A stretch of DNA of 5,285 nucleotides from a virus (Duplodnaviria > Heunggongvirae > Uroviricota > Caudoviricetes): IMG/VR virus record IMGVR_UViG_2695420480_000001; one strand, given 5' to 3'. Position numbers and translations under genes: made by a program. Numbering within the stretch: the first letter of the stretch is position 1; every line of letters starts with the position of its first letter. The notes under the pieces were generated by a model that made no database searches, was not told the origin of the DNA, and saw only the letters and a program-made list of their open reading frames with translations. This document shows positions 1-5,285 of this stretch, in pieces.

Positions 1-2431
1 CTGAAACGTATTTTGCCTGGTAACGGGCGTCATCAAGTGCATTATGGCGCTCACCTTCGAATGGAATAGCCGTTCTGGCATCGAAGTCTATGGCTTTCCC
101 CAGCTCAACGATTGTGCGTACATCGCGATCGTTGTAGTAACGCCACGGGCAGGGGATCCCCTGCCGTTCGTATGAACGGCGCAAAATCGTGTTGTCGAAG
201 TTGGCTCCATTTCCCCAGACCTGAACAAAAAATTCACCGGAGTTTTCGTCGATAAATTCCCGCAATTGTAACAGTGCATCATCTAACGGGATTTCATCGG
301 TCATAATGGCAGATTGCGCTTCGCGTGATTGCTTAAGCCACCATTTAATGGTGTCCCGATCAATGACTCCGCCAGCAGTTTCCAGATCGATAGTCTTACT
401 AAATTCCGGTCCCATATCTCCGGTTTGCGGATCGAAAAATATTGCACCTATTGAGATGATCGGGGCATCAGGATTTTTTCCCATGGTTTCAAGGTCGATC
501 ATTAGATGGTCACACGTCCTGCTGGTGGATGTGATTTCTTGATGACCGTTCACCTTAATTGAGTGATCTGCCGTCTCGCCAGTTCCATTATCGCTATCGT
601 GATGCTGATTGCCGCCAGTGTTCTCCTTGTGTGGATGTTCAGCGCCTTCCATTTTCTCCGGATCATCTTCCTGAACTTCAACCTGATACTCTTCATCGAA
701 TGTTTCCTGGTATGTTGCGTCGCCCATCACTGCGCCACAATCAGGGCAGTTGCCGCCGCCGGTCTGACCGCAGGCGGTGCAGACTTTTTCCACTTCCTGT
801 TGCGCCACTGGTTCAGGCTGTTTCGTTTCTGGCTCGTTTTGTAACGCATTTGGGCTGTTTTGTTCCGCTTTTTGGTAGTTCCGTTCCGATTCATGCTGGT
901 TCTGGTTTACAGAATCGCGGGTCTGGATCCCCTTAACCCATTTCGGATCATTCGGGTCGCTAATCCCTGCAACAAATTCTCCGCGAGAGGCAGCAAGCAA
1001 CTTATCGGCGTCAGGCTGGCTGATATTGGCTGCCTGCATAATTTTGTTTACTTCGTCAGCGGTAACTTTTACCGGCTCTGGTTGTGCGGTCGTGTCAGAT
1101 GCACCAGTATTTTGTTGTGAACCTGAGTATGTACTGTTTTTGCGGGCGAAATATTCTTCTTTCGTGATTTCAGTAGCCCCGGCAGCCAGTGCCTTATCCA
1201 GACCAGAAAGTTTGTTTGCGCGACCGTATTTTTCGCCATCCTTGTCGGTGAAGAGGAAGTAGAACGGCCCCTCACGCTCTACAGATGGTTCGACTTCCAC
1301 TTTGCATTCGGTTTTTTCGTTGTCCGGAATTGCCGTTTCCACTGCATCAGTTTCTGGTACTGACGACGAGAGAGTATCAGTTGCGCTCTGATTTGTTCCT
1401 TCATCTTCAAACACGCCCTTTGTAGTCAGGTATTCAGTAATGTATTTGTTCAGTGCCACAGGGTCTTTGTGAATGTCGATCGGACGTTCACGGACAAGGC
1501 CAAAAATAGTCTGGCGGTCGTAGCGAAGGGCATCAGGCTGTTTGCGCATTGATGCCGAGATACGCTTCCAGTCTTCGCGGTCGTTGTCGATAACTTCATT
1601 TTTTGCCCAGCGATGGATGCTGCCGTCAATGTTTCCGGCATCCACATCACCAGGCCAGAGAGCGTAGGCCAGTTCGTCATCCAGTGTTTTCCATGTCTGC
1701 TTGTATTCGCGATGAATGGCAGCAATGACCAGGCTGATTTTTCCTGTTGAATTTTCAGTGTGCTGTTGATTGACTCTGGCGCGGGCGAGATCAACAACAG
1801 ACGTGTATTTTCCGGTTTCCTTGCGTTCACCTTCGCGACGTTTTTTCCAGATGCGCATCTCTGCCTGAATTTCGGGCCATTTGGCACCAGGCTTACATTT
1901 ATGCTTAACCCACCCGATGGCATGCAGCTTAAGCTCCGGATACATGGCGTTAACTTCTGGCATTTTCATCAACGCTTCAACGATATGTCCGTTGAATGTT
2001 GCCATGTCTTCCTGCAACAATTCCTGTGCGCTAATAACCATATCAACGGTGATGTTTTCACATGTGTCGAACTTAACCATGAGAGCGTTCTGTACTTCAG
2101 GGGCCAGCTTGTCAAAAGTGACGTTCATCAGATCGGATTCAGTCTCAACCGGGACAAAAGAAGCAGAATCCTCATCCCAGCGGTTTTCCTGCATATATTC
2201 AGCATCCCATGAATCGAGGGCAGGGCGGGGTATGCCAGGTTTATCCTCGCAGATAATAAATTTATAAGCGCAGTCCTGAGCAGCCGGATAATGTTCCAGG
2301 AATTGCCAGTGAAATTTTGCTCGAGCACGGCGTTCGTCGCCAGCTTCAATAGCTGTGGCTACAGCCACAGCGCCTTCTTCCCTTGTTGCCAGTTCGTCAG
2401 GAATGGCGGCGCAAATAAAGACTTTACTCAT
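1..2431 (-). CDS. Exonuclease VIII-like (RecE/YdfE-family) prophage recombination protein with a C-terminal DnaQ-like DEDDh 3'-5' exonuclease domain; 5' end complete, 3' end beyond window start (about 810 codons present)
   Basis: ATG at 2431-2429 (minus) with GAGG 10 nt upstream (revcomp of 2442-2445) and an in-frame TAA just upstream (2440-2438). The frame stays open to position 1; the track omits it because it is edge-truncated, and the listed minus ORFs (88..282, 1069..1275, 1450..1923, 2128..2349) are all in a different frame. Hand translation starts [20 protein letters not shown]. It contains [25 protein letters not shown] and a Cys cluster [16 protein letters not shown] (about 736-783), both of which I recall from Rac RecE (unverified memory). 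The C-terminal part carries DEDDh motifs: DLET (485-496), NGANFD, and HNALDDA (26-46). Codon usage is E. coli-like. Confidence 0.8.
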
Positions 2432-2524
2432 TTTGTTTTAACCTCATGACAGATTTAAGGATGAACAAATCCCTGCCATTGCTGGCATATAAGAATGAAA
2501 CCGGATATTTATTACGGAACTGTT

Positions 2525-2716
2525 TTAAAGACCTGCCGGGATTTCGATATTATCCTGGTGAATAACTTTATCGACCGGGTAACAGTTACCGGGAATTTTC
2601 TGTTCGGTTGCTGCAGTCATACACTCCTGCATTGTCCTGTGAACACTGACTGCAATATCAACTGGCTCTCCGGAAACAAGAAAAACTGTCAGAACAAGTG
2701 CAAATGCTGTATTCAT
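2525..2716 (-). CDS. ydfD: YdfD-like small lysis/membrane protein (63 aa) with N-terminal hydrophobic helix
   Basis: ATG at 2716-2714 overlaps the TGA stop of the upstream gene (ATGA overlap); AGGA lies 8 nt upstream. 63 codons to TAA at 2527-2525. Product: MNTAFALVLTVFLVSGEPVDIAVSVHRTMQECMTAATEQKIPGNCYPVDKVIHQDNIEIPAGL. Size and position (immediately after dicB, before the exonuclease gene) match ydfD of the Qin prophage as I remember it. The track's longer 81-aa version (start 2770) has no RBS. Confidence 0.6.
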   Translation of the reverse strand: MNTAFALVLTVFLVSGEPVDIAVSVHRTMQECMTAATEQKIPGNCYPVDKVIHQDNIEIPAGL

Positions 2717-2901
2717 TGCCAGCATCCTTTTTGTATCGGACGTAAACGGGCCAGCATTGAAAGAATGCATATTTTATTTAATAACTCCCGTTCGTGTTTT
2801 CTCTTGTTAATGGCATCTTCAGTAAATACAGGGTTACTGATAGTGACACCAATTTCAAAACAACCTTCAGACGTATTAACGTTTGGTAATAACGTTTCCA
2901 T
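2713..2901 (-). CDS. dicB: DicB, prophage-encoded cell-division inhibitor (62 aa)
   Basis: ATG at 2901-2899 with GAGGA 7 nt upstream (revcomp of 2909-2913); 62 codons to TGA at 2715-2713. Product: METLLPNVNTSEGCFEIGVTISNPVFTEDAINKRKHERELLNKICILSMLARLRPIQKGCWQ, which I recognise as DicB (62 aa, N-terminus METLLPNVNTSEGCFEIGV). The track's 97-aa ORF 2713..3006 is the same frame extended to an upstream GTG without an RBS. Confidence 0.85.
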   Translation of the reverse strand: METLLPNVNTSEGCFEIGVTISNPVFTEDAINKRKHERELLNKICILSMLARLRPIQKGCWQ

Positions 2902-2937
2902 TATCGCGTCCTCAACAATGAATTTTGTGATGCGGTG

Positions 2938-2977
2938 CCTGGTGCCTCCAGGTGACGTTAACCAGTTAACAATTAAC
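2938..2977 (-). repeat. Structured element in the dicF-dicB spacer: CCTGG-N5-CCAGG inverted repeat (2938-2952) next to three TTAAC direct repeats (2958-2962, 2966-2970, 2973-2977)
   Basis: Direct reading: cctggtgcctccagg, then gttaaccagttaacaattaac. It lies 40-75 nt upstream of the dicB start codon, in the transcribed spacer. Function unknown (RNA leader structure or protein-binding site). Confidence 0.3.
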
Positions 2978-3070
2978 GCCGGATACAGAGAATCCACCCA
3001 TAACACTGTTTTTGGTTTTAACTGTTCCGCGTGCGCTGAGCCGCATTCACCGCATCACAAAATTCACTTT

Positions 3071-3113
3071 AAAAAGGGCGGCAGAGCAGCCACGGAGTAA
3101 AACTGATACCGCC
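3071..3113 (-). terminator. DicF 3' stem-loop / intrinsic terminator (GGCGG..CAGU / GCUG..CCGCC then U5)
   Basis: On the minus strand, GGCGG (revcomp of 3109-3113) pairs with CCGCC (revcomp of 3077-3081), with an inner CAGU/GCUG helix, followed by UUUUU (revcomp of 3071-3075). dicB lies downstream, so read-through must occur. Confidence 0.5.
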
Positions 3114-3128
3114 AAACGTCACCAGAAA
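3074..3128 (-). ncRNA. dicF: DicF small regulatory RNA (ftsZ-targeting sRNA of the dicB operon)
   Basis: Revcomp of 3071..3128 reads UUUCUGGUGACGUUUGGCGGUAUCAGUUUUACUCCGUGGCUGCUCUGCCGCCCUUUUU. This matches the roughly 53-nt DicF sequence as I remember it, apart from one position (GUGGCUG here, GUGACUG recalled). It ends in a GC-rich interrupted stem plus a U-run, and lies directly upstream of dicB on the same strand as in Qin. The exact ends are not determinable from sequence. Confidence 0.8.
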
Positions 3129-3153
3129 ATTGATAACAGAGGGCGTTGCAGCG

Positions 3154-3190
3154 GGGTTGTCACTTAAGCGTATGGTCAACCTGACAACCC
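3154..3190 (-). repeat. Perfect 9-bp inverted repeat GGGTTGTCA-N19-TGACAACCC, 26-62 nt upstream of the DicF 5' end
   Basis: 3154-3162 gggttgtca and 3182-3190 tgacaaccc are exact reverse complements. In a minus-strand transcript this would form a 9-bp stem with a 19-nt loop just 5' of DicF. Confidence 0.35.
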
Positions 3191-3627
3191 GATGTCCTCA
3201 ACGGGGAAGGAATAACCCCGCCATACTTACCGCCGCGCCATTTCGCGGAGTGCCACAACCGGAAGCGCACGGTCGACGAAAATTTAACGACAGGTTATCT
3301 ATGAACCAGCTACCTCGCCGTGCGCTTTCGCGTTATGGTCTGACTTTTCATGGAAATATCCTTTCAGTAAACTGTCAGTGCCGGATGCTCACCCGTGTCC
3401 GGCGCACGCACTCCACCTCACCCGTGGAGAACTCCTTAATTACCAACCTTAGCTTCGTTGGTTAGCTATTAACGCGGGTAAAAGAGGATGACCCACGTAA
3501 TCAGGTTAATTTTCTTTATGAGCCATCGGAAAGACCATATTGTCATCACGCCTCTGTCCGGGTTGACGAAAAAGAGCGTCAGGTCCGCTGTAAAATCTGC
3601 GGTGCAGTTGTGGAGCCATTTGACTGG

Positions 3628-3786
3628 ATGCTCTCTGTGGCGAAAAGAGAAACCAGACTGGCAGATGATGTAAGGCTCTTGCGCCAGGAGGAACGGGAAA
3701 GGCGGAGAAATATAGAAAAGCTAATTCAGATTGAGCGTAACGCGAAAGCGCGGATACGCAGGGCGGCAAAATCAAGAACTGAATAA
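3628..3786 (+). CDS. Hypothetical small basic/charged helical protein (52 aa from ATG 3628, or 58 aa from GTG 3610); start uncertain, possibly a 5'-truncated remnant
   Basis: The frame is open from 3466 to TAA at 3784-3786. The C-terminal part MLSVAKRETRLADDVRLLRQEERERRRNIEKLIQIERNAKARIRRAAKSRTE looks protein-like (charged, coiled-coil-like). Upstream in the same frame is a Cys/His cluster (PYCHHASV...RCKICG) but no canonical start. The only RBS-like site for ATG 3628 is GGAG 12 nt upstream (weak). It is below the track's length cutoff, and the overlapping track ORF 3488..3673 is in another frame. Confidence 0.3.
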   Translation: MLSVAKRETRLADDVRLLRQEERERRRNIEKLIQIERNAKARIRRAAKSRTE

Positions 3787-3820
3787 TTAAATTTAGCACT
3801 GTTAAAAATTTAATCCTTAA
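3786..3820 (+). promoter_or_regulatory. AT-rich candidate promoter region for the 3866..4311 cassette (weak -35/-10-like hexamers, e.g. tttaat at 3809-3814)
   Basis: An AT-rich stretch (aataattaaatttagcactgttaaaaatttaatcc) sits directly upstream of a strongly RBS-equipped gene. No convincing sigma70 consensus was found, so this is a low-confidence placement. Confidence 0.2.
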
Positions 3821-3865
3821 CCGGAGGGATTTCTGCACCCTCAGAACATCAGGAGGCCGTTCGAA

Positions 3866-4147
3866 ATGGCGGTACTGCGTAATCAGCCTGCGCTGTACGC
3901 GTTTACGTCAGAAATTAATGCGATTAGCGCAACCATTATCGGTCAGCTGGATACGAACTTTAAAACTGGTCGTCGTGCGGCGTTACGTGAGATCGAGGAT
4001 GTGAAACACGATACGCGTGAAGCGGAAGATGTGCTGGATGTGGCGGTGGCCATTGCGGAGGCAGACGGCGAAATTGAGCCGGAAGAGCGCAAGGTGCTGG
4101 AAGAGATTGCCGGTGTTCTGGGTCTTCGTCTGGAGAATTACCTGTGA
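3866..4147 (+). CDS. TerB-like (tellurite-resistance TerB / DjlA-N-type fold) small acidic protein, 93 aa
   Basis: ATG 3866 with AGGAGG at 3851-3856 (9-nt spacer); 93 codons to TGA 4145-4147; strong E. coli codon bias (ctg, gcg, cgt). Product: MAVLRNQPALYAFTSEINAISATIIGQLDTNFKTGRRAALREIEDVKHDTREAEDVLDVAVAIAEADGEIEPEERKVLEEIAGVLGLRLENYL. The C-terminal motif AEADGEIEPEERKVLEEIAGVLGL resembles the TerB-family signature (ADG..E..L..LGL) as I remember it; no search was run. Confidence 0.8.
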   Translation: MAVLRNQPALYAFTSEINAISATIIGQLDTNFKTGRRAALREIEDVKHDTREAEDVLDVAVAIAEADGEIEPEERKVLEEIAGVLGLRLENYL

Positions 4148-4311
4148 CGGTAAAACTGCGCCTGACTGTGGCTGCACTCCTGCTGTTTCTGGTGGTGATG
4201 GTGGATTTCACCAGCAGAATCATGTCGGTGCTGGCGGATGGGGTGCTGGTCTGCGGCATTATGGTATTGCTGTGGCCGGTGATAAAAAGAAACAGCCTGC
4301 ATAATGCTTGA
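4144..4311 (+). CDS. Small two-helix membrane protein (55 aa), translationally coupled to the TerB-like gene
   Basis: GTG 4144-4146 overlaps the upstream TGA (GTGA overlap) with GGAG 8 nt upstream (4132-4135). 55 codons to TGA 4309-4311. Product: MTVKLRLTVAALLLFLVVMVDFTSRIMSVLADGVLVCGIMVLLWPVIKRNSLHNA, with two hydrophobic segments and a basic C-terminus. The alternative ATG start at codon 19 would give 37 aa. The track's 4017..4304 ORF is an off-frame shadow. Confidence 0.6.
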   Translation: MTVKLRLTVAALLLFLVVMVDFTSRIMSVLADGVLVCGIMVLLWPVIKRNSLHNA

Positions 4312-4512
4312 TTTTTTTGTTTGCTGTTTATTAAAAACACTTCTGCATGGTGAATCCCCCTGTGCGGTGGGGCAATCAGCAAGAAGGAATATGGGGTAAT
4401 CGCGGATTCAGGTGCTGATACTGAATTCACCGGGAGGCACCCGGCACCATGCTTTGCCACAAAAGTGTTATTTCTGTTTTTCTCAAACTATCATCGTTAT
4501 CCCTTTATTTTC

Positions 4513-4539
4513 GGCTGCGCATGGCGCGGCCTTTTTTTT
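4513..4539 (+). terminator. Rho-independent terminator (8-bp stem GGCUGCGC/GCGCGGCC with one U-G pair, then T8)
   Basis: ggctgcgc atg gcgcggcc followed by tttttttt (4532-4539). The T-run is only on the plus strand, so it is unidirectional. Confidence 0.65.
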
Positions 4540-4634
4540 ACGACCAGCCACTGGCAGATGGTCATCCTGTGATTTGATTCCGCTTCCGGCTTTTTAACTC
4601 TGTTCCTCTAGCCAGGTAACACAGTGTTATGACA

Positions 4635-4660
4635 GCCCGCCGATTCAGGCGGGCTTTTTT
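4635..4660 (+). terminator. Rho-independent terminator (7-bp GC stem GCCCGCC/GGCGGGC, 6-nt loop, T6)
   Basis: gcccgcc gattca ggcgggc tttttt, ending 11 nt before the stf ATG at 4672. Confidence 0.7.
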
Positions 4661-4671
4661 GTGGGGTGAAT

Positions 4672-5285
4672 ATGGCAGTAAAGATTTCAGGTGTGCTGAA
4701 AGACGGCACAGGAAAACCGGTAGAGAACTGCACCATTCAACTGAAAGCCAGACGGACCAGCAGCACGGTGGTGGTGAACACGGTGGCCTCTGAAAATCCG
4801 GATGAAGCCGGTCGTTACAGCATGGACGTTGAGTACGGTCAGTACAGCGTCATTCTGTTGGTGGAAGGATTCCCGCCGTCACATGCCGGGACCATCACCG
4901 TGTATGAAGATTCTCAACCCGGTACGCTGAATGATTTTCTCGGTGCCATGTCGGAGGATGACGTCCGGCCGGAGGCACTGCGTCGTTTTGAACTGATGGT
5001 GGAAGAAGCGGCGCGTCACGCTGAGGAGGCGAAGAAGAATGCCGGAGAGGCGGAGACGTCCGCGAGGAATGCCGGCATATCAGCCAGTCAGGCGGAAGCG
5101 AGCGCGGCAAATGCTGACACTTCAGCAGGGGAGGCATCGGAGTCAGCCCGGCAGGCGGCAGAAAGTGCAGCCGCTGCAAAGAAGTCAGAGGAAGCGTCCT
5201 CGTCCTCGGCCTCTGAGGCCGCTCAAAAAGCCAGTGAGTCATTACAAAGTGCAGCAGATGCTGAGTTGTCAAAAAAGACGGCAGA
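4672..5285 (+). CDS. stf: Side tail fibre protein Stf, N-terminal part (204 codons; continues beyond window end)
   Basis: ATG 4672; product MAVKISGVLKDGTGKPVENCTIQLKARRTSSTVVVNTVASENPDEAGRYSMDVEYGQYSVILLVEGFPPSHAGTITVYEDSQPGTLNDFL..., which is the conserved N-terminus of lambda/Rac/Qin Stf-family side tail fibres (recognised from memory). It is followed by an Ala/Ser/Glu-rich low-complexity shaft region. No stop occurs before the window end; the antisense track ORF 4895..5272 is a shadow. Confidence 0.9.
   Translation, partial: MAVKISGVLKDGTGKPVENCTIQLKARRTSSTVVVNTVASENPDEAGRYSMDVEYGQYSVILLVEGFPPSHAGTITVYEDSQPGTLNDFLGAMSEDDVRPEALRRFELMVEEAARHAEEAKKNAGEAETSARNAGISASQAEASAANADTSAGEASESARQAAESAAAAKKSEEASSSSASEAAQKASESLQSAADAELSKKTA

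Follow-up and report, generated by a model that had tools for sequence, protein, structure and literature searches.

The stretch of DNA analysed here (hereafter, the window) is an entire draft-assembly contig, CXZE01000052.1 of GCA_001277415.1, with a length of 5,285 bp. Its left part carries dicF, dicB and ydfD on the minus strand, as an earlier note on this sequence had stated; all three were recovered by searches with Rfam, tblastn and Pfam. All the genes called from position 3481 rightward lie on the plus strand, consistent with the statement in the same note that the next genes are on the opposite strand. The features of the window are as follows.

1 to 2431, minus strand: recE/ydfE-like exonuclease VIII gene, cut by the left contig end (Pfam YdfE_N and YdfE_C; annotated as an exonuclease in colinear loci)
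2525 to 2716, minus strand: ydfD, intact, encoding a lysis protein (DUF1482; Pfam PF07358; 96.8% amino-acid identity to K-12 YdfD, tblastn)
2713 to 2901, minus strand: dicB, intact, encoding a cell-division inhibitor of 62 amino acids (Pfam PF05358; 88.7% amino-acid identity to K-12 DicB, E = 1e-35, tblastn)
3076 to 3128 (right limit 3127/8), minus strand: DicF sRNA and its intrinsic terminator (Rfam RF00039)
3129 to 3468, minus strand: native ydfC-dicF spacer, corresponding to the ydfC 3'UTR (329 of 340 positions as in K-12 Qin, no gaps)
3469 to 3480, minus strand: ydfC remnant, consisting of the last three codons and the stop (..YPR*; alignment with the intact loci L001 and L002 and with K-12)
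3477 to 3480: deletion junction 1, with the microhomology GGTA common to both parents
3481 to 3786, plus strand: 5'-truncated gene for a 137-aa hypothetical protein, weakly zinc-ribbon-like (Pfam Zn_Ribbon_TF, below cutoff)
3871 to 3874: deletion junction 2, with the microhomology GGTA, joining a DUF7167 start region to a TerB-family gene
3866 to 4311, plus strand: TerB' fusion ORF (3866-4147) and DUF3927 gene (4144-4311) (Pfam TerB and DUF3927; 100% identical to L007)
4609 to 4610: deletion junction 3, with the microhomology TA, joining a nanS-p leader to a tail-fibre upstream region
4672 to 5285, plus strand: gene for a prophage tail-fibre N-terminal domain, cut by the right contig end (Pfam phage_tail_N; 96.8% identical to L006)

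The match to DicF was strong (75 bits, E = 8e-16, vs a gathering score of 48 for RF00039), with a single mismatch relative to K-12 DicF (52 of 53 nt identical), and a terminator-like site at 3093-3078 belongs to this sRNA. The ydfD and dicB genes, both of which are full-length matches to their K-12 counterparts, lie 3' of dicF on the same strand.

The segment immediately upstream of DicF (3129-3487) had been described as an ORF-free, GC-rich and hairpin-rich sequence occupying the place of the usual upstream genes. The ORF count was exact: the longest minus-strand open frame in this segment has 44 codons, from stop to stop. The description as GC-rich holds to a slight extent relative to the window (52.9% vs 49.4%), but the excess is marginal, and the K-12 spacer has a similar content (52.6%). 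The richness in hairpins is likewise only moderate (fold z-score of -3.2 against shuffled sequences). The claim that the segment replaces other genes did not survive alignment. In K-12 MG1655, the end of ydfC and dicF are separated by 340 nt, and window positions 3129-3468 match this Qin spacer, without gaps, at 329 of the 340 positions (97%); they are also colinear with the corresponding sequences of L001, L002 and L008. On a larger scale, K-12 Qin is colinear with window positions 1665-3480 (97.4% identity), and several intact phages and prophages (the ompW prophage of 2023CK-01509, Tritos and vB_EcoS-640R1) are colinear with the window as far as base 3480. Positions 3129-3468 are, therefore, the usual ydfC-dicF spacer of K-12 and of intact phages. 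Colinearity with intact Qin-type operons was the outcome that the earlier note had itself named as contrary to its proposal, and the idea of foreign sequence upstream of DicF is therefore refuted.

Judging from these alignments, 3129-3468 is a long untranslated region native to the operon, namely the ydfC 3'UTR already described in the literature. This stretch is known in K-12 as the DicF processing region (PMC5069750, PMC9438474, PMC10448788), and the K-12 spacer contains the sites at which RNase III and RNase E cut to release DicF. A 190-nt DicF precursor has a 5' end generated by RNase III (PMC10448788). With the position of the RNase III site transferred from the K-12 fragment lengths reported in that study, the site was inferred to lie 137 nt upstream of the DicF 5' end, and the precursor would span positions 3076-3265. 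In the predicted minimum free energy (MFE) fold, 3265/3266 lies within a duplex of ~24 bp, formed by the pairing of 3254-3278 with 3313-3337. The native processing region, comprising the putative RNase III site and the DicF 5' end produced by RNase E, appears to have been kept.

The spacer was compared across 183 dicF loci from viral contigs (L180-L263 and L061-L179). The DicF-proximal ~220 nt, including the duplex, were essentially constant in nearly all these loci. The ydfC-proximal part was mosaic, with boundaries at spacer positions 21, 43, 61, 112 and 121 leading to differing upstream modules, many of which had no ydfC or ydfB. In the intact relative L005 (isolate AF20), an insertion of ~590 bp in the ydfC-dicF spacer (1564-2156) replaces the sequence equivalent to window positions 3348-3378; a hypothetical protein of 151 aa is annotated on the plus strand of this insertion. 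Two matches to STnc100 were also found with Rfam. One of these matches, which was below the threshold (37.7 bits), lies in the dicF-dicB spacer (2869-3078, minus strand). The other, which was strong (100.8 bits vs a gathering score of 47), lies 3' of the DUF3927 gene (4316-4488, plus strand), at a position corresponding to the leader upstream of nanS-p in intact prophages. The hairpin core CACCnGGAGGCACCnGGCACC is common to both, and a related structured leader may precede genes in early-left and late operons alike.

The true discontinuity was found at 3480|3481 (hereafter, junction 1), at the right edge of 3129-3487. The ydfC stop codon is located at 3469-3471 on the minus strand, and base 3480 is the twelfth nucleotide from the 3' end of this gene. 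Intact operons read ...TTAACGCGGGTA up to this base and then continue into ydfC, whereas the window has AAAGAGGATGACC... instead; beyond base 3480, L001 and L002 carry ydfC, ydfB, ydfA, a repressor gene and a cro-like gene. The right flank (3477-3874) matches, with an identity of 97-99.5%, the 3'-terminal two-thirds of the gene for the 137-aa hypothetical protein (L004 8462-8859 and L005 6997-7394), which, in intact elements, follows the DUF977 gene, beyond the replication genes. The distance from the end of ydfC to this gene is 4.0 kb in vB_EcoS-640R1 (L004) and 4.7 kb in AF20 (L005), and the order and orientation are those of the window. The tetranucleotide GGTA is present in both parental sequences at the crossover, and the plus-strand gene resumes only at codon 37, having lost 108 nt at its 5' end, start codon included. 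The parental sequences thus occur in the same order and orientation in relatives, have only a few nucleotides in common at the crossover and are joined without regard to gene limits, as in a microhomology-mediated deletion.

This comparison of sequences identifies junction 1 as an internal deletion that was mediated by microhomology and has intragenic endpoints on both sides. About 4-4.7 kb was lost, comprising ydfC, ydfB, ydfA, dicBp and its operators, dicA/cI, dicC/cro, ydaT/cII, O/P and the DUF977 gene. The earlier note had raised the possibility that a recombination junction had removed the control region. The deletion itself is real, but it is located in the last codons of ydfC rather than at the edge of DicF, and it was alignment to Qin-like prophages, the approach which that note had suggested for finding the breakpoint, that placed it at 3480|3481.

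The reported absence of the usual upstream genes and of the repressor was borne out: with the K-12 proteins YdfA, YdfB, YdfC, DicA and DicC as queries, tblastn detected no homologue in the window, yielding nothing but noise (best E value of 0.2 or worse) even at a permissive E value of 100. The accompanying claim that there is no HTH-like gene held up as well, as no HTH domain was detected by Pfam in the local ORFs, the tblastn searches with DicA and DicC were negative, and none of the genes of the window encodes a regulator. We therefore rejected the possibility of hidden remnants of the upstream genes. The ydfC gene is reduced to its last 12 nt, and ydfA and ydfB are gone. Homology to intact loci stops at 3480, and dicBp, the operators and the adjacent dicA/dicC immunity locus are absent.

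The natural mosaicism of the ydfC-proximal spacer among dicF loci, with its five boundaries, might favour another origin for junction 1: a lambdoid mosaic exchange, in which an alternative regulatory module was swapped in, rather than a deletion. We consider such an exchange very improbable, because both endpoints are intragenic (the plus-strand gene lacks 108 nt, and all but 12 nt of ydfC are missing), the sequence acquired on the right would be a truncated opposite-strand gene without a start codon, the two flanks lie 4-4.7 kb apart in the same order and orientation in intact phages, and no regulator gene accompanies them in the window.

The window is a short draft contig that ends, on both sides, in genes repeated among prophages, and junction 1 was rare in the collections searched. 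A 160-nt query gave no record spanning the junction among 5,426 complete E. coli genomes, and an exact 33-mer had no match in the GTDB representative genomes. Among metagenome and viral contigs, 166 loci had the exact left flank, and all 165 of those that were readable ran on into ydfC. Likewise, 152 dicF loci had 1.5 kb or more of sequence upstream, and every one of them retained at least one of YdfA, YdfB, YdfC, DicA and DicC. The nature of the contig and the absence of the junction from complete and representative genomes might be taken to indicate an artefact of assembly from repeated prophage sequence. However, the identical junction, with 100% identity, is present in the Logan contigs L010 (DRR567785) and L012 (DRR567778). 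Junction 1 must be considered real, because independent assemblies carry it in identical form; moreover, the 4-nt overlap is much too short for a k-mer misjoin. We therefore rejected an assembly artefact, the probability of which we judge to be negligible. The contigs L011 and L013, from two further read sets, are identical to the window to the right of 3477, yet keep the intact gene, and thus represent the undeleted state. The junction 1 deletion is, accordingly, a real, rare and lineage-specific event. It also seems to be recent, as suggested by the 100% identity of its flanks to L011 and L013, in which case the intactness of the retained genes need not imply selection.

Further junctions were identified to the right of junction 1. 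Junction 2 joins the DUF7167 start region to a point 152 nt inside the TerB-family gene, which is normally found downstream of Q and the tRNA genes. Its product is an ORF of 93 aa (3866-4147, plus strand), consisting of a new ATG and two codons followed by the C-terminal part of the TerB-family protein. At junction 3, the leader that precedes the SASA esterase gene nanS-p is fused to a point just upstream of the tail-fibre gene. The same 93-aa fusion protein was called in 9 contigs from several samples, and junctions 2 and 3 therefore predate junction 1. The retained pieces are ordered and oriented as in a single lambdoid prophage, which has lost its immunity, replication, nin/Q and lysis genes, together with most of its morphogenesis genes. 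Given these further junctions, at ~3871-3874 and 4609-4610, the contig is a heavily decayed lambdoid prophage.

Some regularities were apparent among the junctions. Junctions 1 and 2 make use of the same tetranucleotide, GGTA, and the four junctions examined, including that of the Res13 prophage described below, all end in TA. The left endpoint of the Res13 deletion falls in the same 4-nt stretch of terminal ydfC sequence as that of junction 1 (L003 7338-7343). An imperfect inverted repeat (3441-3466; TTACCAAC...GTTGGTTA), forming a hairpin of 7-8 bp, directly follows the ydfC stop codon at a distance of 13 nt from junction 1 and could be a stall site favouring slippage deletions. One might imagine deletions directed by sequence or structure that strip lambdoid prophages of their immunity regions and spare dicF-dicB as a host-domesticated, DicA-free module, but we regard this as improbable. 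A general hotspot at 3480 was not supported, since the 165 readable left-flank loci all continue into ydfC. A GGTA rule was also rejected: the right-hand parent in Res13 has only TA in common, and none of the natural mosaic boundaries within the spacer displayed the GGTA pattern. With four junctions, the recurrence of GGTA may be a coincidence.

We then considered the consequences of junction 1 for expression of the retained genes. Transcription of the K-12 operon starts at dicBp, which lies upstream of ydfA, and processing of the resulting RNA yields DicF (PMC10448788). DicA represses dicBp 22-fold, and dicBp was the sole promoter detected in the operon in K-12 experiments (PMC10448788), although a promoter upstream of dicB had been proposed (Cam et al. 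1988, as cited in PMC10448788). The earlier note had offered, as an alternative to a recombination junction, a different promoter and processing signal for the two division inhibitors. This alternative was not upheld: the spacer is 97% identical to that of K-12, and no minus-strand promoter was predicted upstream. Consensus scans for sigma-70 sites, covering 2650-5285, revealed none on the minus strand in 3129-3935 or 4300-5285. Two weak sigma-70-like sites were found on this strand, at 3964-3935 and 4285-4258, each with 9 of 12 matches. Promoter-like sites were at chance level overall (3 found vs 2.6 expected in shuffled sequence), and a replacement promoter was rejected, nothing above chance being present on the minus strand between 2650 and 5285. 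No minus-strand terminator was predicted between these weak sites and dicF.

Because the repressor and dicBp were lost in the same deletion, the division inhibitors are most likely silent. By this reasoning, dicF-dicB-ydfD would be an orphaned promoterless cassette, silent or nearly so, and the loss of the repressor would have been tolerated, rather than lethal, because the cassette is probably not expressed. This is a simple and likely answer to the question, raised in the earlier note, of how the toxicity of the two inhibitors is kept in check. The weak minus-strand sites, or transcription originating beyond the contig, could nevertheless give low-level read-through. A stronger version of this view is that a cryptic or internal promoter still drives the cassette, free of DicA control, and that low levels of DicF and DicB are retained for the benefit of the host; transcription might start at the promoter formerly suggested to lie upstream of dicB, or at an antisense promoter present by chance in the plus-strand pseudogenes. 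The intactness of dicF, dicB and ydfD despite the lost control region would fit such expression, as would the two weak sites with no predicted terminator before dicF and the earlier proposal of a promoter upstream of dicB mentioned in PMC10448788. We nonetheless consider it unlikely, as promoter-like sites were no more common than in shuffled sequences, the K-12 experiments revealed no additional operon promoter, and the apparently recent date of the deletion, with flanks 100% identical to the undeleted L011 and L013, leaves the intact genes without need of an explanation by selection.

We therefore favour, with a probability of about 85%, the interpretation of the locus as a remnant of a Qin/PPompW-type lambdoid prophage with at least three internal deletions, in which the control region was deleted at junction 1, leaving a cassette that is most likely silent. 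The dicF-dicB-ydfD-recE block belongs to the early-left (dicBF) operon, of which it is the part farthest from the promoter. The GGTA|GGTA deletion at 3477-3480 took everything from the last 12 nt of ydfC to codon 37 of the plus-strand gene. The repressor and the promoter left together, and the division inhibitors were orphaned, most likely with little or no transcription. The anatomy, the two parental sequences, the junctions and their recurrence in independent read sets are direct observations; the silence of the cassette and the location of the RNase III site are deduced. The locus is an example of the ordinary deletional decay of a lambdoid prophage, and the segment upstream of DicF is an already known, native untranslated region. 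The significance of the finding lies mainly in annotation: a segment that looks odd, free of ORFs and structured, is the well-described ydfC 3'UTR. Strains with the junction 1 allele are, in addition, natural delta-dicBp, delta-dicA mutants that could be used to test for DicA-independent promoters of DicF and DicB.

The closest well-characterised system is the dicBF operon of K-12 Qin (ydfABC-dicF-dicB-ydfDE, with DicA/DicC acting at dicBp). In the window, the dicB, ydfD and recE/ydfE-like genes have the order and strand that they have in Qin, and the similarity extends to the ydfC-dicF and dicF-dicB spacers, both of which are 97% identical. In contrast to Qin, the window has no ydfA, ydfB, dicBp, operators, dicA or dicC, and no ydfC apart from 12 nt, and its cassette abuts a truncated plus-strand gene. 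The intact lambdoid phages and prophages Tritos (OV696610), vB_EcoS-640R1 (ON470612), the PPompW prophages and the ompW prophage of 2023CK-01509 are 95-98% identical to window positions 1-3480 and contain the two flanks of junction 1, ordered and oriented as in the window. They differ from the window in having 4-4.7 kb between these flanks (ydfCBA, cI/dicA, cro/dicC, cII/ydaT, O/P and DUF977) and in having kept their late genes. A comparable event was found in the Qin-like prophage of Res13 E. coli isolates from pigs (e.g. NZ_CP062895), which have independently lost, by deletion, ydfCBA together with the immunity region and a portion of O. The left endpoint of this deletion (...GCGGGTA|) lies within the same 4 nt as that of the window, whereas the right endpoint lies inside the O gene, with only TA in common, and dicB is disrupted by an IS3 insertion. 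Finally, partial dicBF loci have been described in several prophage contexts in pathogenic E. coli, with multiple copies per genome (Balasubramanian et al. 2016; PMC5069750), and the window resembles these loci in carrying dicF and parts of the operon, which they display in differing prophage backgrounds.
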